Part shown: one piece after another, positions 6,220 through 37,820 of the stretch
Layout of the letters: the number at the start of each line of letters is the position of its first letter
How positions within the stretch are numbered: the first letter of the stretch is position 1
From: Blasia pusilla
Taxonomy: Eukaryota
Direction of reading: 5' to 3'
Length of the DNA: 64,000 nt
Assembly: GCA_050084515.1 (NCBI GenBank)
Contig: CM114271.1
Location: 15,066,001-15,130,000, forward strand
Made by a program: the position numbers and the translations under genes
Notes under the pieces: generated by a model
The model's database searches: none
What the model saw: only the letters and a program-made list of their open reading frames with translations
Told to the model about the DNA's origin: nothing

Positions 6220-8290
6220 GAATTTAGGTTAGATGGGTATCATGATGGCGATGGAGTGTAATTTCTTTGTGTGTGTAGCACGTTTATGGATATGCAATGA
6301 TCATGTGAAGGGAGCGGGGTAGTTCGAGCAGTAGTAGTGAAGTGATATCGAGTGGAGTGAGATATCGAGGGATTTTGAGTGAAGCTATCTTGATTCCAAT
6401 CTGCGTGTGTCTCATCTCTAGACAACGGAACAAATGATGAGATGGACGATATGGGCCATCAGGGTGTGCGTTGTTTCTCGGGTGCAATAGCCATAATTGA
6501 TTTTATGATTTCTACCAAGAGTTCAAACACATGGTGCAACTTCTAAGAGATATGAGTTTCATAGTGTGAAAAGGTTTAATCCAACATATAGAGGGATCTC
6601 CAATTGATAACTACATGGAGTTGTGGTTTTTATACTCGACAGAGATCAATACTTCATGGATAGATTGGGATCTAAGGTATATGTCCACTAGTGGTGGGGA
6701 GACATATGATGGGATAGTGAGAGTTGAGAGATCTACACCAACAGCCTAAGGATAAGATAAAGTTGATGTCAATGAGTGCGGTGATGTGGCAAGGACCTCT
6801 GGTCTTAGAGCACGACGTCGTTGTAATCCTATAGTGAATTTCTTTCGACAATTGGGGAGAAGTTATCGAGCCATCCAGATTGGTAAGTTGAAGAGTTTGA
6901 GAGAGGCCTTCACGGGCATGAGTCGACTGATCATTCCTATGGAAAGAGAGATTGAGGCTGCGCCAGCGAAGTTGGTAGATATGCAAGCTCGACCAACCAT
7001 AGAGTGAGTTGTGATGGCACAAAGTGTGGTGTTGTTGAATAGCCGAGGAGTGTATTATTCGTAGTGTCTCCTACTTGATTCGCGAGCACAACCCTTGACG
7101 TTAGAGAAAGCGGCATGTCTGACGTTAGGGTTACTGAAAGGCGTGTCACATCTTATTTCGACCTAGGTAGAGTTCTATTGCGTCGACGGCATAGAGAGTC
7201 ATCGGGTTGTTCGGGTGTAACTTCGTCTTCGTGTAAGTTGGCGACAAGTTTGTTGTGTCGGAAAAGTTGTTTATGGCGATTTCCGTATTTTGGTTTTAGT
7301 CTGTCAGATGATCCGTTGATCGGGTCCACGATCATCCGATAACCTGTGCACACAGGTTATCATTGATAGGGTTGTTTTTGGGGGAAGAGCTTTTTGGCTC
7401 TTCCCAAGGTTATAAGAGTGAGAGAGACGGCTTTTCAAGCCATCTTTCTCATGTTGAGCGTTAGGAGCGCCTCTCTTGCATAGATCTGGGTGGGTGTATA
7501 GGAGTTAGGGTGCTAGCATCCCTCATAGCAGACGGTGGATGTGGTTCGATATGCCGATGTAGATTCATGAGTGGAGTTTTAGGCCGTGTGAGCCATTTTT
7601 ACTACTCTTGATTCTACATGAGAAAGATGCGAGGGGGCAGGGAATTTGTTGGTTGCAAGTAGGCAAGCAAGTTGCCTCGGTGAGGAGCCCCTGGAGACGC
7701 GTGTGTGGCGTTTGCTTGTCGTTTTTCAGTTCAAGAGACGTTGCGCGAAAGCGTTGGCCGTGTTTGGTGGATTTCGCTGGTGCAGATCGACGAGAGAGAA
7801 CGGCAGAGTGTAGCGGGAAGTGTGGCGTTAGGAGTTCATGAGCGAGTGTGTCGGGAAAGAGAAAGTTAAGTCTTGCAGCCTTGGGGGGCTGTTAAGTCAA
7901 GGCGGCTAAGTTGGAGCCGTAGTCCTTTAGGTCACAAAGTACCCCTTAGGTCACGGCCAGATCAAGTTACAGGGTTAGGTCAGGGTAGATTTGCTAGGAG
8001 TCCGCGGGGGATAGCCAAGAGACGCGAGTCAAGAAGCGGCGCGCGAGGAGGCTAGACAATCGGAAGGGAGAGGAATTGGGTTGCGATAACTCAGAGCGGG
8101 AGCCGAAGGAGAGAGGACGGAGCCGCATAGGGCCGTGTGCATAATACGGGAGGTCGATCGTCGGCAACAAGAAGAGAAGGGGACGGGGAAGGGGTTGAGG
8201 GCATAGGGGCACGGGCCTGGGCCCCCCATCCGCAGGAGTTTCATAGGGACGTGGGCCAAGGGCCCATGCCCCCTTCCCTCCGGCCCCTCC
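6220..8290 (+). mobile_element. Degenerate copy of a gag/protease retroelement family ('family A')
   Basis: Blocks match other copies in the window: 6310-6910 ~ 12900-13560; 6950-7150 ~ 19910-20130; 7370-7610 ~ 36815-37060 and 22400-22630; 7600-8290 ~ 37050-37650. Confidence 0.6.
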
Positions 8291-13733: not shown

Positions 13734-14046
13734 TGTGGAAAACTACTAAACAAGCATAATTGGTGGAAAACGGCTCTCTCACACACACACCACCATGGAG
13801 AACGAAATTTGCAATGAGAGAATTGAGTGGAGGTTGGTCTTCTTCTCAATTATATAGGGTATGTACAAGCAACCCTAACCCTACCCTTAACCATAGTCTT
13901 GAGTTAGACTAATTATGATTAATTAACTCTAGTTAAGATAATCGTGCTTAACTGACTAACCAAGATTAAGCTTCCCTACTTTGTGTGAGTACCAAATGTA
14001 GCAATTTAGGTGTCTCATGAGCTTGACTGTAACTCAATCTTCAATA
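13734..14046 (-). repeat. Copia 3' LTR (313 bp)
   Basis: Begins tgtggaaaac and is near-identical to 18730-18977; adjacent PPT (ttccccctc on +, 14047-14055). Confidence 0.9.
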
Positions 14047-14049
14047 TTC

Positions 14050-17000
14050 CCCCTCAAGCTCATATCGATATCTCTAACGCCTAAATCCTTTCTAAACATC
14101 TCGAACTTATCTCTAGACAATGCCTTTGTAAAGATGTCAGCAATTTACTGATCTGTACCTATATACACAAGATCAATTTCTCCTGCAAGCACTTTCTCTC
14201 TGATAAAATGATAGTGCACCTCAACATGTTTTGTACGAGCATGAAACACAAGGTTATTAGCAAGCTTGATACTACTAATATTATCTATATATATTACACT
14301 AGGTCCTAAGTTACTAACACCAGTCTCAACAAGTAATCGATGAAGCCACACCGCCTCACATGCTGCATTGGTTGCTCCTCTGTACTTAGCCTATGTTGAA
14401 GATAAAGCAACTGTAGGTAGCTTCTTTGAAGCCCAACTTATAGTTGCGCTCCCAAAGTAAAGGAATAACCAGATGTGGAGTGTCGATCAGACACGCTTCC
14501 TGCCCAATCAGTATGTGGAATCCCTGTAATTGAAAACTCGGAGAAGGTTCAAATTGAAGCCCAAATTGAATAGAGAATTTCACATATTGCATAATCCTCC
14601 TCGCATCATCAAGGTGAGGTTTTCAAGGTGCTTGCATAAACTTGCTCACTAGGCCAACAACATAGCTCAAATCTAGTTTGGTTATAGTTAGATAGATCAA
14701 ACTTCCAACCATGCGCATGTACATATTAGAATCTGCAAGCAGCTCTCCTTCGTCCACTCTTAGCTTCACGCTTTGGTCCAACAGTGTAAAGATTGGCTTA
14801 CAAGCTGTCATACCATATTTTGAAAGCATATGAAGAGCATATTGTCGTTGTAGTAACCACATACTCTCTCCAACCTTGATAAACTCAATTCGAAGGAAGT
14901 ACTTCAGTTCTCCCAAGTCCTTCATATCAAATTTTGCTTGTAACTTCAGCTTGACTTGTTGTACCATTTCTTGAGTACTCCCAGTAATCAAGAGATCGTC
15001 AACATACAACACAATGAGAACTGTATAATCTTTTTCTCTCAAGACATATAACGAGGAGTTAGAATCACATACCCTAAAACCCAACTCTTGTAGGACGTAT
15101 GTAATCTTGCCATACCAAGCTCTTGGAGCTTGTTTGAGCCTATATAGATCTTTCTTCAACCTGCATACGCAAAATGGAAACTTGGAATGCTCGTTTCCAG
15201 GTGGTTGAGTCATATATACCTCCTCATATAAGTCTCCATTCAAGAAGGCATTCTTGACGTCCATGTGATGTAATCTCCACTTCTTACCTAATGCAACTGC
15301 AACCACTATTCTCGTAGACGCCATCTTCGCAACAGGGCTAAATATTTCCTCATAATCGATACTATATTGTTGTGCATAGCCCTTAGCCACCAATCTTGCT
15401 TTGTATCTGTTAATTCTACCATCTTGATTGTGCTTGATTTTGTAAACCCATTTGCAACCAATAGCTTCCTTACCGGAAGGTATATCAATCAGCTCACATG
15501 TTTGTTGATGTCTTAATGCAACAAGCTCTTCCTCCATAGCTTCGATCCATTCAGCTTTACTCGCACCTTCTTCAAAAAAACTCCGCTTCTGCTCTTGAAG
15601 GATAGTCATCTTATATGCATGATGTGTTGCAAGTAAACCTTCATTTATGAATCTATGAATTGGATGTGTAACTCTAATTGATCTACGAAGTTGTTGTTCA
15701 GAGATAGATGCCTGTGACACGTGACTCGAGCTCTGACTAGTGTCAACAGACTGAATATGTACTCTTCCCATCCATAGACTCATAGATTTAATTGATGAAT
15801 CTAAGACCTCTCCTAATCCTATACTAGTACTTGGGAAAGTTGAAGACAATGTCTGGTTTATAGTCATATTCTCTCCCTCAACAGACAAGTTTAAAAGTGG
15901 AATAGGCTCAGATGGAGCATACAATGACTTTAGTTCATCAAAGACAACATCTCGACTAATAATTAGATGCCTAGAGGATGGAATATAGCACTTATATCCC
16001 TTAGTTCCATCAGCATAACCAATGAAGATACATCTTTCAGAATTGGGGTCTAATTTCTGACGTCTCTCAGAAGGAACATGAGCATAACAAATACAGCCAA
16101 ATACTTTCAAGAAGGAAAAATCAAGTTTACTTCCTATGAAGACTTCGAATGGAGTTTTATCATGAACTTCTGCTGTTGGAGTTCAATTGATTAAGAAGAC
16201 TGCACATGCTACATCCTCTGCCCAATACACCTTAGGCATGTTCTTCTCATTCAGCATAGCTCGTGTTGCTTCAGCAATATGTGGATTCTTCCTCTCATCC
16301 ACTCCATTTTGTTGTGGAGTGTAACGGCAAGTCACTTGACGTTTGATGCCATTCTGAAGTAAATAGTCATCAAACTCTGTTGAAAGATACTCTCCTCCTC
16401 CATCACAACGCAATTTCAGAATGTGTTGTCTAGTCTGCTTCTCTACTAGAACTCTGAATGTTTGGAACACTGAGAATACCTCTGACTTGGCTTTCAAAAA
16501 GTATACCCATATATACCTAGAGAAGTCATTAATAAATGAAATAAAGTACTGGCAACCACTAAGGCTATGTTGTGATGCTATCCACACATCATTGTGGATC
16601 CATTCCAATATCTTGGATGCTCTTCTACCTTGCTTTGGAAAAGGAAATCTAGCTTGTTTTTCAAATTGGCAAGCAGGACATACCTCTAACGTAGCAAGAC
16701 TCGCTAATTTAGGGAGTCTTATTACTATATTAGATGATGAAAGACTCTGTAATCTTTGAAGATTCATATGTTCAATTCCTTTATGCCACACATTTAGATC
16801 TGTGACTTATTGGCCGATTTGACCATACATTGTTGTTTGAATCTCTGGCATAGAAACAACTAATTTGAGCATTTTTCCAGATCTAGTTCCTTTGGCTATC
16901 ATAGTCTGGTCATCTATTGTTTCAATGAAACAACCATCTACGTTAAACTTCACTTGATAACCATGTTTTACTATCTCTCCTACAGAGATCAAATTTCTTG

Positions 17001-18214
17001 CAATGGTAGGAACATATAGAACATTTCCAAGAGCACAAAGACCATCTGATGCTATTGGAACTTTACATTGGTATACGTGATATAATGGTGATGTCATCTC
17101 CTGTGAGCACAATTACAAGATCTTTCACTGGCTTCAAACTACTGAACCATTTAGCTTGTGAGGTCATGTGATTTGATGCACCAGAGTGAATGTACCAATA
17201 TGTTATCAAGTCTTTCTTGACCATTGCTCTCATATGATGAGTCATGACCAAGAGATGCTCCGTTTGTGAATGTTGTTGTTCTTGGTACTGCTCTTGGTGT
17301 TGTTGCTCCACATAGTTTTATTGTTGTAAGGCTCATGTTCTCATATTTGCCTTTTTCTTGAAGAAAAAATTTGCATAGTGACCCTTTATCCCACAGTAAT
17401 TGCAAGATCCAGAGAGCCTTTGTTGCTGATCTCGACCCCAACGGTTTCCATCATCACCACCTTGTGATTGTGTCTAGTACCGATTTGTAGTTGATTGACT
17501 GACGTTATATTGAGTGCCTCTTCCTCCATATGCTTGATATCCACCACGACCATGGAATTTTATGCCATGACCTCTGCCTCTGTTTGATCCATAACCTGCA
17601 AATAGGGCACTCTCTTGCAGACTAGACGAGCTACCGCTGCCTGCTAGGTGCATCTCTCCATTGATCAACAGAGGAACTAACTCTTGAAAGGTTGGATACT
17701 TCTCTCTCATAGAGATAGAGGTCTCAAAGGACTTGTAATCCTTTGGAAGGCCTTGAAGAGTGAATAAAATCATATCATCATCTTCTACTGTCACTCCAAT
17801 GCTATTCAACTGGTCAACAATATGTCTGATACTCAAAATATAATCATTGATGCTCTACGATCTTTTTCGCACTTCGTTCAATTGTTGTTTCAATTGAAGC
17901 TTTCTGGCCTTTGTAGATGTGTGGAAGATCTTTTCTAATGCATCCCAGGCCTCCTTCGGAATATCAACATCTTGGATGTGACCTATCATTGGCGAATTGA
18001 TCGTTATTGAAATGTAGTGGATTACTTGCCTTGCGCGTTTGTTCCAAGCGTGAACATTCAAGTCTGTTGAGTCACCTTCTAGCTTGGCCTCATCACCTAT
18101 CACAAGCTCTCATAGTTCTTGACTCATGAGAAATTTTTTCATGCGAAACTTTCAGACATTGTAATTCTGCTCGTCTAACTTCTCGCCTGTGATTATTGTT
18201 GAGGAATACTCCAT
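14050..18214 (-). pseudogene. Copia gag-pol polyprotein with multiple stops and frameshifts
   Basis: ATG at 18214 (MEYSSTIITGEKLDEQNYNV*KFRMKNFL). ORF pieces 17855-18103, 17474-17836, 16807-17311, 16183-16791, 14623-16110 and 14145-14351. Confidence 0.92.
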
Positions 18215-18717
18215 GATAAATGATTTCACTCACAAAAACATAATTTCATGCTTTCTACTGCTCCAATTGGAGCATAGACCACTCCTATACAGAATTCGAC
18301 CTGAAATTTTCCGAAAGTGATGAGCTATATGAAAGAACTAGTCGAAATTGGTTTGTAGAGAGCAAATTGTACAACTTTTCTTCACTAATTGCTCTTTCCT
18401 ACACTAAAATTGCTACTGCATGAGCTCACAGTGTCAAAATCGAGCAATTTTGGGTGCGTTTGAAAGCTCTCGATAAGCTCTACAAGATGGCTACAACTTT
18501 CCTTCTAATTGTTCCAGTCAAAGCGGACCCAGACGGCTGAATCGACCGGGAAAGCCCTAAAAAATGCCTCCAAAGTTTTATCATCGTCAAAGCTCCACCT
18601 GAAATCTGCACCCATTAAGCTCTGAATTAAATTTCCTTCTTCCAAACTGAAAATTTTCCTTCTCTTGCCTCTCTTCTCTCTTCAAACACCAAGAATTTTA
18701 AGTGATATTCTCCTCCC

Positions 18718-18729
18718 GCTCTAATACCA
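18718..18729 (-). promoter_or_regulatory. Primer binding site (tRNA-iMet type)
   Basis: gctctaatacca is the reverse complement of TGGTATTAGAGC, one mismatch from canonical TGGTATCAGAGC, and abuts the LTR. Confidence 0.85.
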
Positions 18730-18977
18730 CGTGGAAAACTGCTAAACAAGCATAATTGGTGGAAAACGGCTCACACACACACACACCACCATGGAGAACG
18801 ATATTTGCAATGAGAGAATTGAGTGGAGGCTGGTCCTCTTCTCAATTATATGGGGTATGTACAAGCAACCCTAACCCTACCCTTAACCATATTCTCGAGT
18901 TAGACTAACTCTGATTAACTAACCCTAGTTAAGACAATCGTGCTTAATTGACTAACCAAGATTAAGCTTCCCTACTT
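18730..18977 (-). repeat. Copia 5' LTR, truncated at its outer end
   Basis: Matches 13734-13981 only; the last ~65 bp of the other LTR have no counterpart. Confidence 0.88.
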
Positions 18978-20859: not shown

Positions 20860-22770
20860 TAGGGGGTGGTTTTGGGGTCCCAATATATATGCGTGAATAT
20901 GTTTCATTTATGTGTGGATCTACCCGTATATTGGGGAAGATCGATGTTGTGTGGTATGTAGATGTGACCAGCAATGTGGGTTGTGTAGCGATGTGTATGC
21001 GCACGACAGCATTGTGGGGTCACAGTGTATACGCGTGAGTGTGTTTCATTTATGTGTAGATCTACCCGTATGTTGGGGAAGATTGGTGTTGTGTGGTATA
21101 TAGATGTAATCAACGATGTGTATGTGCACGACAGGCAATATTGAGCCCTTTCCCTTTCAGATACATATCTTTATTGGGAGTGTATCACCCACGCAGTATA
21201 TGACTCAACACAAGCTAGTTGTTAGATTCTAGTCAAAGCCTAGGTTAGATCATGCGAAGGTGCATACTCGGACGAGTCCTATGATGTGTTGGTAGGAAGT
21301 ATGTTGTTGTATCCCCTTTATTTCATCTTAATTTTTGGGAGGAGAGGATTTCTTATCGATCAAGATAGTGATCAGGTGATGGACAAGTGAGCCATTTACC
21401 TGTGTGCTTTGCAAGGCGTAGTGTACTAGTGGTGGATCACAATGTGATATCGTGATCATGTTAGCAAGATTCACATGTAGTGAGTGGCTAGTTGGATAGA
21501 ATCAACCATGCGGAGGACATCCTATGAGCAATTAGTCCCACAGAGCTACATGTCAGAATGAATATTTCTTCCCATGGTGCGGAGACCTCTTTACCGTTGT
21601 TGGGTATATAGGAGTGTTGAGCTCATTTGCATAAGAATGCAGATGAGCTCGTGATGTAGGTGAGGAGATGTGCCTGTGTTTCAAAGCAGACAGAGTGAGG
21701 TGACAATCATGCTTTTGGAGTATAGATTTGATATCTTCAGATACCACACTTGTTTTATGTGAGCATCTAGAGGAGGGCGCGAGAGTGTTAAATCTCTCTG
21801 AAGGGATCAACACAATGGGTAGGTGTAGTGTTGTAGGATTATATTTGGATACATTGATATCTCCAAGTAGAGTTAGATAAGATAGATACGCGGATGAGCA
21901 TATGTTGGAAGACGTATCTGATATGATGGCACCGACGGTACTAGATGATTATAGAGTGGTAGATTATCTTAACTAGATATGATGTTTGCTATTTGGAGTT
22001 AGGGGGATCCAAGTGCCAGCCAGGGGGACGATTATGTGGTCTTAATATATATGCGTGAATATATTTCGTTTATGAAATTATGAATGGATCAACCCGTGTG
22101 TTGGGAAGATTGGTATTGTGTGGTGAGTAGATATAACCAGCAATGTGGATTATGTAGCGATGTGTACGTGGACAACAACTGCAACATCTTAGTTATCTGA
22201 CAAGGAGTGTTCTATTGTGCCAATGACATAGGGATCAACGGGTTGTTTTGGTGTAATTTTGTCCAAAGATGTCGGATGAGGTTGGCAATATGTCGGTTGC
22301 ATCAAGAACATTGTTTTATAAGATTGCCCTATTTTGGTCTTTGTCACCTAGATGATCCGTTGACCAAATCAACAATCATCTAGTAACTAGTTTTGGAGGC
22401 TATTTATAGAGAAAGAGCATTTTGGCTCTTCACAAGCTATAAGAGAAGAAGAGAAGGCTTTCCCAAACCATCTTTCCTATATTCAGCCTTAGAGCACCTC
22501 ACTTGCTTTGTGTATAGTAAGAACTAGGGTGCTAGCGTCCAAATTCCTTGATAGCAAAGGATGGATGTGAATCGATGTTCTAATGTAGATTTTAGGAGTG
22601 GAGTTGGCCATGTGAGTCATTTTTTCTATGATTTTGTTATTTGATCTCGATGTACATGCGTGAGTATAATTTGCTTATAAGTGAATCGATCCGTATCTTG
22701 GGAAGATCAACGTTGTGTGGTGTGTAGATACAACCAACGATGTGGATTGTGTAGCGATGTTTATGTGCAC
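20860..22770 (+). repeat. ~130-bp subrepeat of family A (copies near 20890, 21035, 22060, 22660; also 37690-37820)
   Basis: Recurrent ...ttatgtgtggatctacccgt.t.ttgggaagat...ttgtgtggt.tgtagat...cgatgtgg.ttgtgtagcgatgtgtatg.gcacgaca. Confidence 0.75.
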
Positions 22771-23965: not shown

Positions 23966-24334
23966 GAAATTGCATCACTCTATTGAGTGCAAAGGTAAAA
24001 AGAGAGGAAGAGAGGAAAGAGAGAAAAGAGAGAGGAAAAATCTAGGGAATCACTTTTTTTTTGAAGAGAGTTTCCATTGGGTTGAAGAGAGGAAAATTTT
24101 CATATATTGGAACCTTTTTTTTTTTTCCTCAATCACTTCGAGTCCGACGAGTTGCAAATTGCACAAAATTGAGAAAACTGAAAAATCAGTGGAATCATAA
24201 GTGTGGAACCAATCACTTTTTGCATCCAAGGTCTGGAAAAAATCTGTCATTTGCGCGGGGCTGAATAGAGTTCAAGCTCAAAGTGAAGGTTGAGAAAAAA
24301 ATAAAAGTACAATCTAAAACCTCATTTTCCATCC

Positions 24335-27300
24335 TCAAAGTGGTTTGTTTAAAATACTTCGAACTTCTTTGAGGGACAGAATTGGTTGGTGGATTCCTAC
24401 TCCTACCTCCGACTCTCTTAAAACTACCAGCAACACATAGTACATGTGCTTACAAGGGAAATACCTTTTGCCACTTGTCTCTCTTTGGACAAAGTCATCA
24501 CATGAACATGTGGGGAAGCAACAGATGTGCACCACATACACCCCTGTGACACTTGAATTTACAGTGTTGTTCTTGACCCAATACATCCTTCCTATTCCAT
24601 TGCCATTGTGGACATCTTTCGTGGCGATGATCTCCATTTTTGCCTCCCGAGCTGATGCAATTCGCTTTGCTCTCTCCACCGTTGGCCTGCACATTCTGTT
24701 TCTCTTCACCCCATTTCTAGACTCAAATTGAAATAGTGGATTGAGATCATCCACCTTCTACATGTTGACATCAATCTTGGGTTGAATACGAAATGCGAAG
24801 GTCTCTGTAATGCGAACATGCTCCGAACCTCCCCCGTCTACGAGTGTGAAACCGGCCGGCACTTGTAAGATTGTCCACTTCGTCTTGAGTGCAGTTCGTA
24901 CCTGCGGCGATGGGCCAAATCATGGGGGTATTCCCGGGAGCTCCAATGGCATCCGGATAAGACTTACGGAAAGCGCAAGATTCATTTGGGCAGAAGAAGT
25001 ACTTCAATTGATCCCCGGTCCTCGTGAAACGATCAAAAGTTTTGAGTCCCCAAAACCCAGACAGTGGTCGTCCAGTCCTTGTACAGTTCTTATTTAGGAA
25101 AGTGCCGCATGCTCTCCTTATGCCATCAGATCCTGCCCTGCAGGTGGGGTCCATGTCCTGGGTTGCTCCAAGATATATGCCACCGTTTTAGGTTGCAATC
25201 CACCTCCATTACCGGAATCCCATATTGTTGAACCACCCTAGTGATAGGATGTTGCGAACTTCCAGCAATGGAGGGCTTTTGAAATAAAAAATTCACTGAT
25301 TTTGGAGAAGTTACTCCATCACGGATTTGGGACGGGTCCGGGGTCCGCGAATACCTGGGCGGCGTAATTTCCTCATCCAAATCAATCACCGGATTTGTTC
25401 CTCGATCGCCTCTTCACCGCTCAAGTCAAGATACTTATCTGGTCTCCACGAGTCTCGCTCGAACTGCTCTACCACCATCTGTATGGGACATCTTGAAACC
25501 CGCCCACGAATATCCCCACCAATGTGTACGTCTTGCTCGAGTGGAGTTCCAGCTACGCACCGGTTGAAGGCTTCCCCATACATTTTTTCATCACCAGATC
25601 TCACAGCCGCCCTGACGTAGAGCTCATAGATCGACGGCCCCTTTCCTTTTGTTATGCCTTTTGTGAGGAAGATATGGGATGTCGCAGATCAGTAGCATTG
25701 CTCTTGCCTGGTCTTGTTGGCATGCCTCCACAAGTGAAATTCGTTGGCATGCTTGTGACGACCTCCAGGAGGAATGAACACTTTCTGCTCCACTTGTGTT
25801 GGGGCAGAGGGCATTTTCATGAACGTTCAATCCCTGCAACGACGGAAATGTTAGAAGGGAACGAAAATAACTCAGGAGTCAAAGAAATAAGCGACCTGTC
25901 GGAACCAGATGGGTTGTAGGCCCGAGATATCCCATGAACGACTCTGCGACCCGTCGGGTCCCGACGTGTTGTAACCTTAAATCCACCTACTGCAACCCAT
26001 CGGAACCAAACGGGTTGCAAGGTCAAGGCATCCCATGAACGACTCTGTGACCCGTCGGGTCTCGACGGGTTGCACCAAAAATCTGGATGCAACCCGTCGG
26101 TTTCCGTCGGGTTGCACACTCAGGCAACCCGTCGCATCCGACAGCTTGCTTGGTTTCTTCGGTTTGAAATCCATATAGTTCCCACGCTTCTCACCCTGAG
26201 CTACAACTTTACAAAAAATTCTCAGCGTGAGCTTGACAACACAAAATAGTGAACTCACTTGCCACATGAAGTTTCCCCATTGTCTCATACGTACAGTCCA
26301 CCAACTCAACCGAGAGCACAACTCTTTGTACTTCCCCTCAATCGCATGCTTCCTCCACCACCCATGAAGTTCTTCCTGGCATTCCATGGCCTGCTTCAAG
26401 GTTTTGTTGTCCTTGCAGTGTTGGAGTAGAGTGACATGCTCTGTCCTCTTATTCTCCTTGATGCAAGATTTGGTGTACCGGGTCACAGACTGTTGCCAAT
26501 GGGAAGCATCCGACCTTTCCCTCTCCGGTTGAACCTCTCCACCCCAGAACACTTCCCGGATAGCAATCCACCCAGGTTGTGCATTGTCTGCCATGAACCC
26601 ATAAATTTCCGAAGGAGGTGGTCTTTTTTTTCCTTCACCACCTCCAATAAGAGTAACCAAAGACATCTTCAAAGCGCCAACGTCTTACGCCTTTACTTCA
26701 CAGACAAATATAGTTTTGAGTCCCTTCTCCACATGGTCATAAACATGAGCACCCATCGTCAACCATCCGTTCAAGACTCAGTAGCAAATATCAAAGCTCA
26801 CCCAGCCTCCGTAAAGATCTTCCCCTTCCCTCATTCGATCTATAAGATCGAGGCCACTCGACGGACCTGTGGTTGACATTTTGAAGACATAGGCCCTGGA
26901 TCCCTCGCCTCCTTGGCCCATGAACTGCCATCTCTGAATGAATGGAAATCTCCAGTTGGCATTGATTCTGGCGATGGCATCCATTTCGGCCGTCTTTCCA
27001 TCCAAAACCCGTATTTGACGCAGAAAATTCCGGAAGCATTCAGGATCAGCGAGAAATGCGAGATTTTCCCAGAGTTGTTTCTCCTCAACCGCCGTGATCT
27101 CGCCTTGTCCAGGGATTCCAAGAAATTGTTCACAAATTTGTGATGCGGTTGTGAGCTTGATCACTCCGGGCTTTGAACCCGGAGAGTTTCTGTAGAACTC
27201 GGCTACTTTCTTCGCCACATCCTCCTTGATGTGTCTCTGAATTGCATCGATCACAGGATGAGTGTGGGAGCCAACATGAACAGCCAGCCTTGTGTACTCT

Positions 27301-28274
27301 GACGTGGAGCCCAAGTCGTGGACAATGAAAAATATGTATGCAGGACACGCTCCAACGCAGAAGGGCGATGCCTGACAATGAGGACATCGATGGCCTCCCG
27401 ACGGTATTGTGGCACCCACCTCGTATGGAGTTTCTGCATTCTTGGGGGGGAATTGCAACGTATTGACTCGCCAGTTGCGCTCTAGATACGGGCATGCTGG
27501 ACTTCTACACTCCAAGGCTCCCAGGCATTGGCGGCGGGAGACAATCCAAGGACCATCTGGAATGGAAGCACTGGTCCGTTGAAGCCTGCACCATCGATGA
27601 CAATCAGACTTTCTGTCCATACCCTTCAGGCATCCTCCATCCTTCTTTTGAGCACGAGCAGCAAGTGGAGGCAACTCAAAAATGCAATTACCATCGTACG
27701 TGGGCGGTAGCTCGTCGACAAGAATATGCTTGAACATTTTCAAGGCTAGAGACAAAAGCAAACTATTGCCTGATACTCGCAAGAGAAACGAGTAGGCGGA
27801 CAGAGGGGCCGATTGGTGTCCGACAGATCCACTGAGGTTGATAACATCCGGAATCTCTTTAGGAAGAAGAACATTGTTACGAGCGTGCAAAGTTGGAGTC
27901 GAAGCCGGATCTACCGAGCTAGGAGTTGCAAACGTAGAGCTCGGAGCACTAGGAAATTCTAGACCGTCTACTTGGGAAACAGAAAAATTCAGGGGCAGGG
28001 AGTAAACTCTGTATTGACCATTTGCTAGAGGTAGGAGATTCCATACTTTACGGTCCGAGGTCACTAGCTGGACCGTCTCACCTATTATGTCTTCCGTACC
28101 GTCCACCCTAACATCTCTGGATACAAAGATGGTTCCAATTTGGAGAAGAAATCGAACAGACAGAAAATTTTCATCCACTGCTATGAAAGACTCACGAGCT
28201 TAGGGTCGAATGATTTTTGATTGAGGAAGGGCCGCCAGATGACTGCCACAAGTGAGCTTAACATAATTATCCAT
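24335..28274 (-). pseudogene. MULE/Mutator-like transposase: GCM-like Zn domain, DDE core, C-terminal SWIM; intron 25834-26258
   Basis: ATG at 28274 is in frame with ORF 26778-28178 (RQCLGALECRSPAC...CPHC...C..HVGSHTHP). Core motifs WVSFDICY*..TMGAHVYD, FMADNAQPGWIAIREVF, DASHWQQ; after splicing (caa|gtgagt...tgcag|gga) NTSGAESVH; SWIM CSCDDF..PCKHMYYV. In-frame stops and frameshifts present. Confidence 0.85.
25891..26149. repeat. Array of 6 degenerate 27-bp palindromes in the transposase intron
   Basis: e.g. gcaacccgtcggtttccgtcgggttgc (26089-26115) and gacccgtcgggtctcgacgggttgc. Confidence 0.85.
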
Positions 28275-28554
28275 TCCCAGAAATTTCGTACGGGAGGAGG
28301 GTGAGAATGAGAAAGAGAATCAAAATGAGAATGAGAATTTTTAATTTATAGTGAATAGGAAACAGATACTCCTAACAGATTTTTACTGACAAGATGAATT
28401 CGGTGGGTGACATTGTCTGACACAATGGATCCATTCAGAACACATTCACTCGTTGCAATATGTTACCGGATTTGGGAAGCAGAGGGTTGCGCATCACACT
28501 TGGAAACCGTCGGAGTCCTGGTAACTCAAAGATAACCCGAAGCTAACCGAAGCT

Positions 28555-29031
28555 TGCAACCTGTCGGCTTCGGACGGGTTGCACGCTTCTGCCAAACATT
28601 GTCGAAGCGAGCAACCCGTCGCTCTCCGACGAGTTGCTCGGATACCGTTTCTTGCCCGAAGATGCCGGAGGCGTGCAAACCGTCTGTTCCCGACGAGTTC
28701 GCGGGTGCCTCGCTTATTTGCCCAAACACGGCGGAGACGCGCAAAATGTCGGTCTCCGACAGGTTGCGCGGGTACCTCGCGTTCTTTTTCGAAGAAGACA
28801 GAGGCGCTCAACCCGTCGGTCTCCAACGGGTTGCTCGCGCACGTGGCGACGTACCCAGGATGGCGGAGGCGCGCAACATGTCGGTCTCCGACGGGTTACG
28901 CGGGTTCCTCGCGTTCTTTTCCGAAGACGACGGATGCGCTCAACCCGTCGGAGACCGACGGGTTTCTCGCGCACGTGGCGACGTACCCAAGATGGCAGAG
29001 GCGCGCAACCTATCGGACTACGACGGGTTGC
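28555..29031. repeat. Array of 8 palindromes (~66-bp period, ~132-bp higher-order unit) between the divergent genes
   Basis: Copies at ~28556, 28611, 28675, 28741, 28807, 28873, 28939 and 29005. Confidence 0.9.
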
Positions 29032-29120
29032 CATTTTTCACGTTCGGACTTTCGTAACCTCCGGCACGGCGCGGTCGAAAGTACGACGAGACCCAATGGT
29101 CAGCCCAACGGCTAGAAAAG

Positions 29121-29128
29121 TATAAATA
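29121..29128 (+). promoter_or_regulatory. Putative TATA box of the accessory gene
   Basis: tataaata followed by a pyrimidine-rich leader, ~300 bp upstream of ATG 29421. Confidence 0.5.
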
Positions 29129-30635
29129 GGGCAGAAATCGCTCATTTCCGGTTTCTCATTTCGCGATCTTCATTTCTCACTCTCCCGCGCAACAGCTGAT
29201 CAGATACGAAGGGGCGTTTCACACGGTGACACATTGCGAGTCGATAGGAGGGAACGAGAGCGAGACGGTTCGACCAAACGACAGCGAGACGGTTCGACTG
29301 AGCGATCGCGGGACGATTCGAGCTACCCATCAAGGCGATTCGAGCTCCCCATCTCAACATCAGCAAGGTGACCGATCAAGGGATTCTTCGTGGACATAGG
29401 TGGAGGCATTTCCGGAAAAAATGACGAGGAAAAAATCACAAGCCAACAAGTCTGGGAGCTTCACTCCGAAGTCCATTAGGACTCCTACGTCAGCATCTCC
29501 TGGGCCTCGTTCGGCGAATGAAATTAGGCAGCAGGAAATCAAGGAGCGGGAAAGGGAAGCGAAGATGCACAACCAAGTGCTTCTTGCGAGACGTGTTCAA
29601 GAGGTGCTAGATAAACAGAACGTAGAGGCCGAGACGTCGCAGGCCTTGAAGAAAAGGATCGCCGAAGAAAAGAGAGAAAAGAAGCGTCTGGACGCGTCGG
29701 TGAGGAGGGCAGAATTGGCTAAAGCAAGGAGGGAAAAAGTGATAGCCATTGACGATAGCCTTGCCCATCCAACCGCTAGTGTTGAGATGCGGGAAATGTC
29801 CCCCACGAAGTCCGGGGACACAATCAACATAGTGGAAACGCCAAAAGTTGAAATCGATGACGACGAGGTCATGAGGACCGCCAGCGTGGAGATGGTGGAC
29901 ATGGCCGAAGAAGCCGGAGAGCGGTCATTCTCGACTCCAAGCCCGGCGGAGGACATCGACCTCTATCGGATCGACGAGTTTCCAGTCGATTTGCTAGCTT
30001 CATCTCGGACAAGTTAGTGGTCAAGAAACCGACCCCATTTTCGACCGGGTAAGAGAGGATGGGTTTTTGAATTATGTGAATTGCAATTCATTGGGAATTC
30101 AGTGTAGCTTATTCATCTTGTCCCGGTTCTGACAGGTGGTAAAGCAGATGGCACTCATGGAGGGCCACAACGCCCGAGGATTCCACTCTACCGATTGCGG
30201 ACAATGGAATACGTCCGCAAAATTCAGTCCGACGAGGACATCGGGAAGCTTAAACAATCAGCGGCGACAGCATCCTACGTCGACAACTTTCCTCCCTTCT
30301 ATATTCAGCCTTACGACGAGCATGGAACCCAAGCTTTGGTTACGGAGGAGGACTTGGAAAAGCTCGACACATTCTGGAGGATGCGAGACCAGGATTTTAG
30401 AACGCAAGTTGAGGGCACGGAATTCATCTGGATGAGGAATCTGCATTTCTTCATCTGGGATGGAAATCACAGGTTCATGGCATGGACCAAGTTTGCGGAG
30501 GAGCGGCCCAACTCATTGGAGGCACATTTCTGCGTGAAGGTAGTGGTCCTTCACCCATTCCCTCATCACATGGCGACGGTGGAGATGGCAATGCATGCCA
30601 TGAACACGTGAGTATCTTCTTGCTTTTACACTTAC

Positions 30636-31340
30636 GCAACTCGTCGGACTCCGACGAGTTGCTCGATGGATGAATGGGTTGGGTTTTTTTTTGCCGAAAG
30701 CAACTCGTCGGACTCCGACGAGTTGCTCGACAGCATGTTTTTTCGGATGTTTTTTTAACAATGCAACTCGTCGGACTCCGACGAGTTGTTTGATTGACCA
30801 CATATTTAATTAGTTTTTGGCCCAAAGCAAACCGTCGGAGTCCGACGGGTTGCTCGACTCGCCGCCTTGTCAGGATGGGTTTTGAAGAATGCAACTCGTC
30901 GGACTCCGACGAGTTGTTCGACTGACTACAGCTTTAGAAGGTTTTTTGCCCAAAGCAACCCGTCGGAGTCCGACGGGTTGCATTCGGAAGTTGGTTCCCC
31001 AAATTTCGCGTCAAATTGCAAGTTTACATTCAATTGCGCAACCTGTCGGACTCCGACGGGTTGCTATGTTCACGCTAGTATGTTCAGTTGCACAACGCGT
31101 CGGAGTCCGACAGTTTGAAACTTGGCATTAGCAAATCTGAATGCAATCCGTCGGACTCCGACGGGTTGCTATGTTCACGCTAGTATGTTCAATTGCACAA
31201 CCCGTCGGAGTCCGACGAGTTGAAACTTGGTATTAGCAAATCTGAATGCAATCCGTCAAACTCCGACGGGTTGCATCATTTAGCTCGTTGCTAGAATCTG
31301 ACCTTGAGCTGTGACGACCCGTCAGAGTCCGACGGGTTGC
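30636..31340. repeat. Array of 12 palindromes in accessory-gene intron 2
   Basis: Perfect 27-bp palindromes GCAACTCGTCGGACTCCGACGAGTTGC at 30636 and 30700; further copies at 30763, 30827, 30891, 30955, 31038, 31092, 31143, 31196, 31248 and 31314. Confidence 0.95.
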
Positions 31341-33447
31341 AAGAGAACATGTAATTTCCTGACGGGTTGAGTTTGGATGTGCAGGATTGTATCGGAGGGG
31401 AATGTCACCCACCACTGGATCCACGACTGCGATCGGGTGAGGAAGGTGCTTACGACGCACCCGGGAGAGTTCAGGGGGTTCTTGGGCGATGCCCTTGTCA
31501 ATCAAATGCTTGCAAAGGGTGCCCAGATTAAAAAGAAAACTTGGGCAAATAAGTTTACTTCCCAAGATGCAGCCATAACCATCCTTTGCTGGTCGAAGAT
31601 TCAGGCCGCGAAGAAGAGCGCTGCACTGGAGCTGGAGCCGAGGGAGAAGGTATCTGCGTCTGAGCACGCGAAATTCATCCAAGCTGCAGTATCTGCAGCA
31701 ACGAAATACACAGCGAGCAAGATGCAGCGATACATCAGCATTCTCAACCCCGAACTTGGTCCGGAGTTCTACAAGGAGCTAAAGGCGATTATCAAGCGCC
31801 AGCGGAAAAGGGATGAAGATCCGCATGGTCGGATTGGGGAGAAAGTGTCCTGGATTGCATGCATCGGTTTGCGTTGTCCGGCATAAGCGAGTTTAGAAGG
31901 ATCCGACTGATGAAAATCAGTCTCGAGGGCACAAAGGCCCAGAAGAGGGCGGCACACCATCCTCCGGGTGTGTCCGATCCAGTGATCTCCCAATAGCTAC
32001 GTGAATGGTCGTTCAGGGACGCGTTGCGGGTTATCGGGAAGTCCGTGGTGGAGGGTCTGCAAGCGGAGCTCAGAAGATTAGAGCCCATCCCGGATGAAGC
32101 AAACCTTGAAAGTTCTGGAGATTTCGAGGTTTGGCTCGACGACATCCGGACAAGCCAACCAAAACCAGGATTCAAGACCATGTTCAAGGTTTGCGTCCTC
32201 CTCGGCAGAGCTTGACGAAGAAGTAGAGGGGAACAAACGGGATCAAGCGAAGAAGAAGCGAGATCTCTGAGGGAGCATGCACGGGCGGATTCGTTCGCTC
32301 GCTAAAAGCTACCCAACGGATGGTCTTCATGTACCTCGCCCGGTGTAAGAATGCAGTACGTGGGGAAAATTACCGGCGACCTTGAAATTGTGGGCTTCGC
32401 GCACGGATGCGAGACATTCTCCATGTACGACATGGAGATGGGGCAAAGACATGTCCGATTGGGAGGTGGAGAATTTCCCCATTTGGCTCGACTTCAACGA
32501 CCTTGAAGACATCACCGATAAGGATTTACGAGTGCTTCATGATGCAAAGTGGCCTCGGGACAAGACGACATCCCCAATTTCGTCGGCCAAGACTTCTTCG
32601 GAGGGAGATGAAGAGCAGCCACGAGACAGTTGAGTTGGCTTCCAAGGTCCGCACGACCAAAGACAAATCCACAAAGATGTCTCAAAGGCAAGGCGAGGGG
32701 AGGGAAAAATTCAGAGGCCGAGTCTTCCCAAAGAGAGGTCAAGATTCAAGGCCGAGGCGGAATCGTCCCGCGGCGGGGAGAGAGGGTCGGACCAGGTCCT
32801 CGCGAAAAAACCCCACGAGTCCGAGGTCATAGAGACCCGACAAGCCGTCCGCAGACTAGGGAGAAGCGGAAGCGAGAGGTGCCCGGGTTGTCCCAAGGAG
32901 AATACAGTCCATCATCCTTGGGAAGACACAGACAAACAAACGACCGGACAAGCGTCCTCCTTCAATTCACTCCTTTACTGGATGAGCTGAAGAGCTTCAG
33001 TTCTCAAGCGTCGACACCAGCCATCGAAAAATTGACAACGCTGGGACGGAAGCTCCAACGAAACGGGCACGCTACGTGGACGGTGAATGGAGTGGTCAAA
33101 GAGATTGCGGTGGATCTCTTGATCGCCGATCTGCCCTCGGGGTTGCAACTTTGGGGCGAGAATCCGTCGGACGAGGTACCTGAGTGGAATGTGCCGCTCT
33201 CTTATGACTAGATTGCGCTTTTGTTCTCCTTTGCAGACGCCTATCTGAGTGACAGGGGCTGCTTCTTGGTGTTGACTGGAGGGAGAGAGGACGAGCTCTT
33301 CAACCTCCAGTGGGTCAAGAGGTTGCTAAAGTGGAGGACGGCGCAATCGTGGATCATCAAAAACGAGTACCCACTCCGATCCACGACGAGTCAGATTCGG
33401 GTAAGGCTCAATTCCTGTACTATAATGAGTATAATGAGTGTCAATCT

Positions 33448-33759
33448 GGGTTTCTTTTGTCCGTGAGCAACCCGTCGGAAGGTGACGGGTTGCTGGATTA
33501 GAGCAGCCCATGCTCGGATGAGAGCAACCCGTCGGTTTCCGACGGGTTGCATCTTTCCCACATACACAGGGAAAACCGCGGTGTACCTGCAACCCGTCGG
33601 AACCCGACGGGTTGCTCTTGCTTTTGGTTTTTCCCAGTTGCTTTTGGTTTTTGGATGCAACCCGTCTGATAGTGACGGGCTGCTCTCAGCTTTAACATGG
33701 GCTGCTCTAGGCAAAGCAACCCGCCGCCTTCCGACGGGTTGCTCACGGACAAAAAACCC
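33448..33759. repeat. Fold-back inverted repeat containing 5 palindromes in accessory-gene intron 3
   Basis: 33448-33550 is the imperfect reverse complement of 33657-33759; central palindrome at 33589-33615. Confidence 0.85.
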
Positions 33760-34439
33760 GCGGACTCGACAGTTGATCCAAAGTCGATTATTGAAAATGT
33801 TCTCAAGCCGACTTCTTTAGTTTCGACATTGTTTCCAACGTCTGATTTATTCTGAGATGGACCACTTCCTACGTGTTGCTTCATTCGCCCGAGCACACTT
33901 TCCAGGTGTTCAAGATCTAGGATCCTGTGGATCCATGCTCGATGGGTAGCTTAGATAGTTTGTACAATTCCCGGAATTTACATGCAAGACAAGACCCCAC
34001 CGGGAGGAAGGAAAAGTCGCCGCCCTGATGCAAATGCTCATCGAGCTCTGCTCAAGGCCGGGTGACTTGGTGTTCGACTTAGTGGGACTTTCAGGGGCAA
34101 GTATCAAAGGCGTCTGGCATAGTGGCAGGAACATTCTCTGCCTCGAGGGAAGGCAGGAACTGTTTGACCTTTGCAAGGAGGCAAAGGCAGAATACGAAAG
34201 GCTCGTTGGGGCGTACAACTCTCCACCAAAGCCGAGAGCACCGGTTCCAGAGCCACCCTTGGTAGTGACTCCATCGTCACTTCCAACGATTCCAAAAATC
34301 GGGAGGGCAAGGCCGAAAGTAATTTTGCAAGAGCTCTCGGACAATGACGAGTGAGTTCAAAGAACTCAACGACCCAGCTTGACTGCAGCGTTTGGAATAG
34401 GGAGTTTTTTTATAATGAGGCAAAAGATTTCATAGAATA

Positions 34440-35550
34440 GATCAAATGTACAGTTCCGAGCTATTTTCGGATGATATAAAGCAGAAGATTTTTTCGAACG
34501 ATGGTGGTGCTTGTAAAAGTTTGCTACTCTGCTAAGTGGTAACACGATGTATAGAGTCTGACACCTGCCCGGTGCTGGAAGGGTGAAAAGGATCGTCTAT
34601 GTACTCCGCGGACTTCTATTTTGCAACCCGTCGGATTTCTCCTGCTTGCAACTTTTCACTTTTTGACCACTGCACCCTTTTTACCACTTCCAGGAAACCT
34701 GTCTGATTCCGAAAGGTTGCCTGATCAAACTCTTTCCATGTTGGTCCAACTTAAGAGGCAGTCTGGCGGGCTTCTTTCCTTGGCACCTTCCCCTCAACTC
34801 GTAAAGGCAGGCGTAGGCTTCTTTTCTTCTCTCAGACGTGTTGGATTCCTACTACCTGTGCGATTGCCATAATGGTATTACCGGGGACGGAGCAGATATT
34901 GATACTGGATGGGTGTCACATTGCAGAGCGTACAAGGTATACTGCCGAGAAAGGCGGTGGGACTCAAAACAGGTTACATGGGACCGTTATGGTGTACCTA
35001 GGGGGGGGCCTAGGCTCTCGAATTCGCCAACATTTTCGATCCCCGTCTACAATCGGCCGGAGGAGCCACTTGTATCCCAGGACATTCCTTTGGTATCACA
35101 TCGTCAGGAGAGTTAGGAGTAAATTTGTAGATGACGAGGTGAAGAAATCATAGACTAAGTCAAATGTACATTTCGAGGTTCCTTCGGAGGTAATAAAGGG
35201 CGAGATTTTTCAACCCATAATGGTGTTTGTAAAAGTTTGCTAGAATATTTTTTGGACTTGTGGATTGTGTTCTTTTAGCTACTCAGAATTACATTACGCA
35301 ACCCGTATGATTCGACGGGTTGCAAGTTTTTGCTTTTGCCCACCGCAACTTTTTTTTACCATTTCGGACAACCCGCCGGATTCCGACAAGTTGATCGCTT
35401 GAGTGATCGGACTCTATCCCGGTGAGACCAACCGGCGCATTGTGGCGGGCTTCTTGACTTTTGGCTGCGTTCCCTTCATTCGTCAAACCAGTTGTAGGCT
35501 TCTTTTCTTGTCTAAGATGTGCAGGATTCCTACTACCTGTCGGATTGCCA
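34440..35550 (+). repeat. Diverged tandem duplication (~700-bp period) downstream of the accessory gene
   Basis: 34443-34527 ~ 35161-35242 (caaatgtaca...tgtaaaagtttgcta); 34622-34870 ~ 35298-35551 (palindromes...gtaggcttcttttctt...ggattcctactacctgt..gattgccat). Confidence 0.75.
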
Positions 35551-36639
35551 TTTCGGATTCCCAACCTGTTAGATCGTCGTGGGTGCAGGGTGGAAGAAAA
35601 TCACTTCTAAAAATCTTTCCTTTCTTATGGTGAGCTTTCTTACGGGTTGGGAGGGGTGCAGCTTCTCGGTTTCTCAGCCTTAGGATCTGATGTGTTCACA
35701 TTTCACAAAGTTGGTCTTGAGCAGACACCATTCATAACCAACAGAAAGTTGGTTATGGGGCAATTTAGGGGAGGCCATGATGCAGGCAACAATCCCTGCA
35801 AAAAGAGAGGTTGGCATCCGGGTGGTCCTCTAACAAAAATACCAAGGGCACTAATTTTTGTTGACCGAGACAGGGAATGTTAAGAAACTTAGGCTCACAT
35901 GGAGAGTGATGGAAAATGTTTAGGGTGGTCTTATGATGTCTCCTTTTTTCTCGCCCCCAGGAAAGAGGAGGTTTTTTTAGGGCCAAATGTGAACCACTAA
36001 ATACTCTCTTCTAAAGATTTCATGAATTTGAAAGCAAACAAAAATTTCAAATATGTCAAAAAGTTTTGAAGAGAGGAGGCGGATTTGGCCCTTTTTTTTT
36101 AAGAGAGACTCTCCTCTCTTCCTCTCTTCCTCTCCTCTCTTACTCTCTCCTTCCAGAATACCAGCCCCCATTCTATTGCATGGTCAACACTGATTGTTCT
36201 ATATAGTGCGGCAATCTCTGCGGCAAGACAATCCACTCAAACATAAAGTCAAACCTCCCATCAACATATGCGGACTATCCATCGACATCGGTGCACGTGT
36301 CTCCATCTCTAACACTCTATTGCAGACCGTCAACATGGATCATCCATCTCACCTCCAATTGGAATAATGCTAGTGAGTCAAACTCTTTTAACGGCTCTTA
36401 AGGCTCATCAAGCTCGTCACAAATCACAGTCCCCTCTTGGAAACAACAAGTTGCGAAAATCTCTCCTTACACTCTGAAACCATCCTCCATTCACTACAGA
36501 GGTTTTGTGGTTGACCACCTACGATGTAGTCTTTGCTAACCTCGTATTGCCACAACTCACGACATCATATGCGCTCTCCAACCTCATAGCTTTGGCCTAC
36601 TACATCTCGTTGGCTTTGTTACATCTTAGTAGCCGATAG

Positions 36640-37820
36640 GTAGAGATCTATTGTGGTGACGGCATAGAGAGCCAACAAACTATCTTGGGTGTAACTTTGT
36701 CCCGAGATGTTGGATAAGGTTGGCGATAGGTCTATTGTGTCGGGAATGTCGTTTATGGCGATTTCCTTATTTTGGTTTTAGTCCGTCAGGTGACATGTGG
36801 ACGTTGGCAGGGCTATTTTTGGGGGAAGAGCCTTTTGGCTCTTCCCAAGGGTATAAGAGTGAGGGAGATGACTTTTTCAAGCCATCTTTCTCATGTTGAG
36901 GCTTAGGAGCACCTCTCTTGCATGTATGTTTGTGGGTGTGTATGAGCTAGGGTGCTAGCATCTGGATTCCCTCATTGCGGAGGGTGGATGTGGCTCAATA
37001 TGCCACTGTAGATTTTGGAGTGGAGTTTTAGGCCGGATGAGCCATTTTTACTACTGTGTTTTACATGAGATAGATGCGAGGGGACAGGGAATTTGTTGGT
37101 TACAAGTAGGCAATCGATTTGCCTCAATGAGGAGCCCCTGGAGTAGTTGGTTGGCATTTTTAATTTTTTTGTTCAGAAGGTTGTGCGCGGAAATGCTATC
37201 TATTTTTCTCAGATCTTGGTGGTACGGGTTGATGGGGGACAGTAGCAGAGTGTAGCAATAGGAGCGCTCAGGTGTAACATGGAGAGTGTCATCGGTGGGT
37301 GAGTAGTGAGTGTCAAAAAAGGCGGGAAGAAAGAGAGAAACCATAGTTAGGTCGTGCAAACCGTCAAGATGTTAGTTAGGTTGCGGTCGTGCTAGGTTTA
37401 GGTTGCTTGTTAGGTCGTATGTAGAAGACAAGAGTACAGTCATATGAGGCAAGAGTACAGGCATGTGGACGGCCGAAAGGAGTTGGGGGCGTAGAAGGGT
37501 GTGAGCGGGGCATACCGGGTACTACCGGAAGTAGAGCGGATGGAGGAGGAGATATGGCCATAGGGGTGCAGGCCAAGTGCCCCCCTCCCCTCCCCTCCCC
37601 ACATTTATTACTCATAGGGGCACGGGCCAAAGCACCCACCCCCCCCACTTCTAGTCATTATTTCCCCTCCTTGTTGTGGGGTCTCGATGTATATGTGTAA
37701 GTTTGCTTGATTTATGGATGGATCGACCCGTGTGTTGGGAAGATCAGCATTGTGTGTTGTGTGATGCGTTGATGTGACCATCGATGTGGGTTGTGTAGCA
37801 ATGTGTATGCGCACAACAGC
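36640..37820 (+). mobile_element. Family A fragment
   Basis: Colinear similarity to 7165-8290, plus the 130-bp subrepeat at 37690-37820. Confidence 0.7.

Follow-up and report, generated by a model that had tools for sequence, protein, structure and literature searches.

A stretch of 64,000 nucleotides from Blasia pusilla (positions 15,066,001 to 15,130,000 of contig CM114271.1, assembly GCA_050084515.1; hereafter the window) contains a mobile element built as a divergent gene pair, a transposase pseudogene and a methyltransferase-like accessory gene, both decayed in this copy. Inside the element we observe 36 copies of a 27-bp palindrome, which lie in introns and in intergenic and terminal non-coding regions, with none of the 36 in an exon. 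We suggest, with a probability of about 0.55, that the palindromes are clustered cognate sites for a DNA-binding protein encoded by the element itself and that they were amplified by tandem duplication.

The palindrome consists of two 12-nt arms, GCAACCCGTCGG, flanking a variable 3-nt centre. The pattern GCAACCCGTCGGA-N-TCCGACGGGTTGC, allowing up to three mismatches, has 21 matches in the window, all between 26089 and 33742, versus none in each of 100 dinucleotide shuffles. These 21 matches were used to derive a symmetrised position weight matrix (PWM). With the threshold set at 4.3 bits or higher (the top score in five Markov shuffles was 3.3), the matrix gives 34 matches, all of them within the 11.3 kb from 24129 to 35394. 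On the scale of the 64-kb window, the motif is therefore enriched inside the element and absent outside it. Scanning for half-sites with at most two mismatches detects 28 left and 28 right arms, all within 24143–35368, and adds two 26-nt variants (26124 and 35298) and a lone arm (28502). Our total of 36 copies is made up of the 34 PWM matches and the two 26-nt variants, distributed as follows:

24129..24155, no strand: degenerate palindrome in the 3' flank of the transposase gene (PWM score 17.2 bits; half-site scan)
25891..26149, no strand: six palindromes (25891, 25946, 25992, 26047, 26089, 26124) inside the transposase intron
28502..29031, no strand: lone arm (28502) and eight palindromes (28556–29031) between the divergent genes
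30636..31340, no strand: twelve palindromes filling the accessory intron 30608–31384
33467..33742, no strand: five palindromes in the accessory intron 33401–33958 (558 nt, 3 x 186)
34623..35394, no strand: four degenerate palindromes (34623, 34694, 35298, 35368) in the 3' flank of the accessory gene

An earlier note on this DNA, made from the letters alone, had counted 6, 8, 12, 5 and 4 copies in these compartments plus one half-site, and our numbers agree. Its 3'-flank copies are all present, two of them displaced by one base (34622 and 34695 in the note). Its statement that full copies are missing from exons and from the rest of the window also holds, as 0 of the 36 overlap an exon and the other ~52.7 kb of the window contain no PWM match. 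Elsewhere the motif occurs at chance level: seven single matches in metagenome contigs of 58–70% GC, and eight stretches of prokaryote genomes with one full match apiece. A motif scan of viral contigs gave no match, and in the literature we found no description of the 27-bp motif, or of such arrays, in liverwort transposons.

Comparing the palindromes with the DNA that surrounds them shows that the motif persists while the spacers differ, as the earlier note had claimed. Between arrays, palindromes are 0.71–0.79 identical, whereas the identity of spacers, 0.41–0.49, is at the level of shuffled controls (0.42–0.49). Within arrays the corresponding values are 0.75–0.85 and 0.43–0.63. In the arms, each position holds 0.9–1.8 bit of information; the three positions of the centre hold 0.1–0.6, and the flanks (12 positions on each side) no more than 0.18. 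Because information falls sharply at the edges of the motif, the conserved object is the pair of 12-nt arms with a free centre and not a longer repeat unit. Conserved arms around a weakly conserved 3-nt centre are the layout of a putative two-half-site protein target. We also considered GANTC, a methyltransferase site, as a conserved feature of the palindrome centre and rejected it: it is found in only 14 of the 34 aligned copies, and no part of the palindrome is less conserved than the centre. Comparison of the flanks revealed no target-site duplications around the palindrome copies.

The arrays retain CpG and show no sign of CpG hypermutability. Across 30 of the 34 copies (the degenerate copy 24129 and three degenerate 3'-flank copies were left out), CpG positions differ from the consensus in 22 of 240 cells, compared with 51 of 480 for the other positions. 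For the palindromes, the observed/expected CpG ratio is 1.35, and for the part of the intergenic array outside them it is 1.52, versus 0.64–0.67 in the rest of the window.

Each array has its own architecture. At 24129, the right arm (24143–24155) matches at 12 of 13 positions and the left arm is lost. In the transposase intron, palindrome centres are 35–55 bp apart and form a ~101-bp higher-order repeat. The intergenic array, rich in GC and CpG, has a period of 64–67 bp and a 132-bp higher-order unit with 87% identity (Tandem Repeats Finder). The accessory intron 30608–31384, which is bounded by GTGAGT...TGCAG and joined in a consistent frame, is occupied by two sub-arrays, one with a period of 64 bp (128-bp unit, 80%) and one with a period of 51–54 bp (105-bp unit, 93%); 28 nt precede the array and 44 nt come after it. 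The array in intron 33401–33958 is bracketed by a 40-nt inverted repeat (33455–33494 and 33715–33754, 95%), each half of which comprises 12 nt of flank and a palindrome, giving a foldback-like outline. A relic arm is located in the same intron at 33867–33879. Downstream of the accessory gene, the copies occupy two ~715-bp tandem units (34424–35140 and 35142–35850, 71–76% identical), each holding two decayed palindromes ~70 bp apart. The array-specific centre triplets, together with higher-order units of 80–93% identity, show that the arrays grew via local tandem duplication. Coding sequence accounts for 47% of the span in which no copy touches an exon; the exon models come from splice sites, reading frames and homologue alignments and are thus inferred from sequence. 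The arrays nearly fill introns that are otherwise short, the array-free introns measuring 60–123 nt. A search for palindrome-encoded peptides in the tails of homologous open reading frames (ORFs) gave one spurious match among 154 proteins and is uninformative.

The dyad symmetry itself does not reflect compensatory change. In the alignment of 34 copies, 83.7% of cells pair, compared with 83.3 ± 0.7 after shuffling the 3' letters (167 of 500 shuffles reach or exceed the observed value), and the covariation score is 0.124 versus 0.117 in shuffles (121 of 500). Cells in which both partners changed number 8, against 4.7 ± 1.9 expected, a count reached by 36 of 500 shuffles; one array alone, with its CTCG/CGAG variant, supplies four of these eight. 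Beyond arm conservation, the 34 copies and 500 shuffles thus give no compensatory changes in excess of chance. The earlier note had considered covariation of the arms, an idea that fails here, since the pairing is explained by each arm matching the consensus. Its observation that symmetric variants keep the dyad stands for four copies (30636, 30700, 30763, 30891), all in one array, and breaks down in at least three others (28611, 31197, 24129), in which the right arm alone has changed. The symmetry arises because both arms match one consensus and is no evidence for selection on pairing. What has been kept is the sequence.

The transposase gene of the element is read from the minus strand:

24338..28274, minus strand: Mutator/IS256-like transposase pseudogene (homologue alignments, structure models, weak SWIM match)
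25834..26258, minus strand: predicted transposase intron, phase 0 on both sides (GTGAGT after ...TGGCAA at 26258; TTGCAG ends at 25834)

Exon 1 extends in one frame from the ATG at 28274 to 26259 (~670 codons) and contains three in-frame stops (28202–28200, 26777–26775 and 26687–26685), which means that this copy is not autonomous. Homologue alignments cover 28193–26247 and then 25842–25684, 25242–25147, 25037–24837 and 24787–24347, with the frame matching across the intron, and two ORFs found on related contigs are interrupted at the identical residue, between QWGGYMQL and VS. The alignment gap and the GTGAGT/TTGCAG splice sites together place the six palindromes at 25891–26149 in an intron. 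A HMMER scan of 1.84 billion representatives identified 215 relatives of the transposase (E≤1e-3). Ten of them were looked up; nine carry a name, and all nine come from liverworts (eight Riccia sorocarpa, one Calypogeia fissa), while the tenth has no name. None of 15 transposase homologues matches any Pfam family at E≤0.01. The Pfam MULE transposase domain gave no match, nor did any family at E≤10 for the catalytic ORFs, and a word-based homologue search with the transposase ORF (longer proteins) returned nothing.

For the AlphaFold model of the 473-residue transposase ORF (predicted local distance difference test, pLDDT, 77.7), the top Foldseek match is a DNA-bound GCM domain (E=5e-3). With VIA-align, GCM aligns over 135 residues at Z 6.4 and WRKY domains score Z 5.4–6.1; the GCM/WRKY-fold domain spans about residues 136–320 of the ORF. 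At the level of the fold, the GCM-like transposase domain of the earlier note is borne out. For the model of an intact homologue, P0151 (pLDDT 78.5), Foldseek ranks ISCth4 first, a transposase of the IS256 family (E=6.4e-4, probability 0.99); the GCM domain is matched as well (E=3e-3, probability 1.00). The homologue model thus supports a predicted RNase-H-like DDE core related to IS256, the bacterial relative of Mutator. The later transposase exons reach into 24338–24757, where a SWIM match is weak (E=0.007, below the Pfam cut-off); one transposase homologue is named SWIM-type by its source.

The accessory gene lies on the opposite strand:

29422..34354, plus strand: accessory gene, predicted model (splice sites and frames; methyltransferase-like matches)
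29422–30012, 30136–30607, 31385–~31886, a broken stretch ~31887–32970, one ending at 33176, 33237–33400 and 33959–34354, plus strand: accessory exons

The gene begins at 29422, downstream of a TATA-like box; by eye, such boxes can be read at 29122–29129 (plus strand) and at about 28340–28350 (minus strand). Canonical splice sites join the frames consistently across 30013–30135, 30608–31384, 33177–33236 and 33401–33958. The middle part (~31887–32970) consists of coding-like stretches in two frames with stops between them, representing either further small introns or decay. A 169-residue ORF at 31792–32301 faces it on the opposite strand. The likely 5' leader carries a 24-nt unit, AACGACAGCGAGACGGTTCGACCA, repeated 1.9 times at 29253–29298 and unrelated to the palindrome.

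The last accessory exons resemble a beta-class DNA methyltransferase. The final exon matches DNA methyltransferase families of the phage collection PHROGs at E=1.5e-5 and Pfam N6_N4_Mtase at E=0.0015, below the cut-off, and both matches include the region of motif I, which binds S-adenosylmethionine (AdoMet); M.RsrI is a weak match (E=0.07). The presumed motif IV (33130–33150) reads DLPS by eye, compared with the usual (D/S)PP(Y/F), so the enzyme may be either inactive in this copy or atypical. Exon 2 contains a DGNHR motif, for which the DGQHR domain (E=0.09) and ParB/Srx-like proteins are weak leads, as is one Atlas cluster with 11% ParB_N members found for the accessory protein. The protein has no ParB match in Pfam, and no helix-turn-helix was identified in it. 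Exon 3 gave no match in Pfam and no usable one in Atlas. For exon 2, word-based homologue searches (longer and near) gave nothing and a PDB sequence search only chance rows. Of the label ParB-MTase used in the earlier note, the methyltransferase part is supported, and the ParB part is unproven.

In addition to the restriction of the motif to the element within the window, the conservation of the arms but not of the spacers between arrays, the lack of covariation, the growth by duplication and the retained CpG, three observations lead us to favour clusters of cognate binding sites: a cis layout like that of the Arabidopsis element VANDAL21, the GCM/WRKY-class fold of the transposase, and the presence of CGGGT in the arms. 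The GCM domain is described as binding the octamer ATGCGGGT (PMC2172107), which has CGGGT in common with the arm TCCGACGGGTTGC. The favoured binder would be the GCM/WRKY-fold zinc domain of the transposase, with two subunits on the two 12-nt arms; alternatively, the accessory protein could be the binder. The sites would have been multiplied by local tandem duplication where extra DNA is tolerated, in short introns, in the spacer between the divergent promoters and in terminal non-coding regions. A high density of sites would allow the protein to find copies of its own family, and, once bound, the protein may turn on the divergent promoters or relieve their silencing, gather at the ends of the element, or do both.

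Several points weigh against this interpretation. With Z about 6, which the tool itself describes as a common range, the fold similarities are moderate, and an unrelated helical match reaches Z 6.5 on another part of the 473-residue model. The five bases shared with the GCM site could have arisen by chance. Known transposase sites are usually terminal, and we did not locate the true termini of this element. The analysis covers a single copy of the element, decayed by three stops in the transposase and a broken middle in the accessory gene. Because spacers within arrays are partly alike, part of the palindrome identity reflects recent common descent. For five to six independent clusters all avoiding coding sequence, p = 0.04–0.02, and confinement to non-coding DNA is weak evidence because a gene would not survive an array within one of its exons. 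The proposal of the earlier note that the motif is a protein site therefore survives in that the motif itself is conserved and the repeat unit is not; covariation finds no support, and non-coding placement, taken by itself, says little.

The arrays could instead be functionless passengers, that is, a minisatellite or a nested derivative of foldback or miniature inverted-repeat transposable element (MITE) type, expanded by slippage at a hairpin-prone palindrome and surviving only where the reading frame stays intact. Avoidance of exons would then require no function. The way in which arrays almost fill short introns would be accounted for, as would the foldback-like inverted repeat of intron 33401–33958 and higher-order units similar enough to imply recent slippage-type growth, and a single palindrome does fold as single-stranded DNA, at -15.2 kcal/mol. 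Slippage, however, copies whole units, yet spacers between arrays have diverged to shuffle level around a 27-mer that is still 71–79% identical, and conservation ends exactly at the motif edges. The copies also lack flanking target-site duplications, and their CpG positions decay no faster than others. We therefore consider passengers unlikely. The folding of the palindromes could also be what matters, as hairpins or inter-copy duplexes in pre-mRNA that affect splicing or feed Dicer-made small interfering RNAs and RNA-directed DNA methylation (RdDM), or as DNA cruciforms. As RNA, the 777-nt intron 30608–31384 has a folding energy of -375.7 kcal/mol (z = -14.6 relative to 20 shuffles), its copies pairing with one another in duplexes of ~27 bp, single copies fold at -14 to -15 kcal/mol, and VANC target repeats in Arabidopsis are described as targets of RdDM as well (PMC10398659). 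Against such a role, pairing is no higher than after shuffling and half of the few double changes come from one array; decayed copies fold less (-5.8 to -8.1 kcal/mol) and so lose pairing; copies are also present in the intergenic spacer and in both transcription orientations; and a specific sequence, unneeded for structure alone, is conserved. A structural role therefore has little probability in our view.

Host transcription factors offer another explanation, with the arrays as an enhancer captured by the element, for example through paired CCGAC cores. CCGAC is the DRE/CRT-type motif read by AP2/ERF factors. CCGAC/GTCGG is present in each arm, and the largest CpG-rich array lies between the two divergent TATA-like boxes. 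The outer part of the arm (GCAAC/GTTGC) is nevertheless as conserved as the CCGAC core and makes the motif longer than a host site needs, copies also occupy introns and 3' flanks, and the remainder of the window has none, so that we regard host-factor sites as quite improbable. In a more elaborate version of element-encoded recognition, to which we give only a slim chance, the palindromes would form the cis half of a transposon module against silencing that has not been described before. The CpG-rich dyads would be recognised by the ParB/Srx-like-methyltransferase-like accessory protein, acting by itself or together with the GCM-type transposase, and would thereby be kept free of host 5-methylcytosine, by occupancy or by a different mark (N4-C or N6-A), so that the divergent promoters of the element would stay open. 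Prokaryote-type enzymes for N4-cytosine methylation are described in the lineage, namely Marchantia MpDN4MT1 (bioRxiv 10.1101/2021.02.12.428880). Such a module, if real, would amount to a functional analogue of VANC with components of bacterial or phage origin.

The window is eukaryotic DNA with many mobile elements. For the palindrome-bearing element, a search for terminal inverted repeats or other ends yielded only a 17-nt low-complexity inverted match (24000–24016 and 36112–36128), with no convincing target duplication there. Purine-rich (AAAGAGAGG)n repeats at 23999–24032 and complementary CT-rich repeats at 36109–36148, within which this 17-nt match is perfect, are candidate, low-complexity outer limits of an element of ~12.1 kb. 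We also considered the palindromes as abutted element termini, based on a 16-nt inverted match (24143–24158 and 34620–34635). This was ruled out: the copy at 34623 aligns to a full copy in the adjacent duplicate unit, and the pair has no target duplication. A repeat of ~450–550 bp occurs three times (7144–7696, 22184–22628 and 36617–37143; 67–76% identical), with two of the copies flanking the element in direct orientation. Elsewhere in the window, a copia-type long terminal repeat (LTR) retrotransposon is found at 13735–18977 on the minus strand, with gag, integrase and RVT_2 and with LTRs (13735–13981 and 18731–18977) that are 94% identical. A tandem repeat with a period of ~72 bp (52988–53327, units 80–88% identical) lies inside a 445-residue ORF (52346–53680), for which no family matched.

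Among documented systems, VANDAL21/VANC21 is, by analogy, the closest. VANC21 is described as an accessory protein of the Arabidopsis Mutator-like element VANDAL21 (Hiun) that binds a short motif accumulating in introns, in intergenic DNA and in non-coding parts at the termini (PMC5735166); the motif is often in tandem repeats, with local CG hypomethylation (PMC5735166; PMC10398659). Both elements belong to the Mutator superfamily and carry one or more accessory genes, and in both a family-specific motif has piled up in the same three non-coding compartments, largely as tandem repeats. The VANDAL21 repeats grow and shrink; here we see tandem arrays and higher-order units in one copy only. VANC sites are linked to local CG hypomethylation, and the arrays described here retain CpG, as read from their letters alone. 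The two systems differ in the motif, a 9-base asymmetric word (YAGTATTAY) for VANC and a 27-bp dyad of two 12-nt arms here. Unlike that of VANDAL21, the present accessory gene is methyltransferase-like, and the nearest named relatives of the transposase are from liverworts and not from flowering plants. No ORF in the window matched a family that would mark a VANC-like protein.

Other systems share parts of this arrangement. The AtMu1 transposase and the Spm TnpA protein are described as sequence-specific activators of their cognate copies (bioRxiv 10.64898/2026.08.24.746577). Like the present element, En/Spm (CACTA) and AtMu1 have many motif copies in both orientations with unrelated sequence between them, and in those systems a protein encoded by the element reads the motif and regulates the element's own promoter and methylation, as we propose by analogy here. 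The TnpA motif of maize En/Spm is 12 bp long and subterminal; like the present motif, it contains CCGAC. The sites of En/Spm and AtMu1 are concentrated in the subterminal few hundred bp, whereas the largest arrays here are internal, in introns and the central spacer, and Pfam scans of the window ORFs gave no match to a CACTA-type transposase family. Plasmid centromeres for ParB-family proteins are also comparable: sopC of F is a series of tandem 43-bp units, each with a short inverted repeat, and RK2 carries dispersed KorB operators. They resemble the present element in that tandem, regular palindromes lie beside a gene with a ParB/Srx-like motif. They differ in that ParB membership is a weak lead here, no helix-turn-helix was identified, the setting here is that of a eukaryote and a partner ATPase is missing. 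As for the GCM domain, its structure (PDB 1odh) is the best match of the DNA-binding region of the transposase and each palindrome arm contains CGGGT; on the other side, the DNA core in common is five bases long, the fold scores are moderate, and WRKY domains match the core of the domain nearly as well.

The principle of self-recognition is thus already known. New features are the dyad form of the 27-bp site, arrays that lie internally, a domain of GCM type, a partner gene resembling methyltransferases, and the lineage. To date, sequence-specific self-recognition through transposon proteins such as VANC, TnpA and the AtMu1 transposase has been elucidated in flowering plants. In the element described here, the cis architecture of those systems is repeated around a much longer site with dyad symmetry, combined with a GCM-type transposase domain and a methyltransferase-like accessory gene. 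If the proposed binding is true, it would extend this strategy deep into land-plant evolution, and DNA reading by the WRKY-GCM1 fold of a transposase could then be studied with a candidate domain and a 27-bp site that is well defined.

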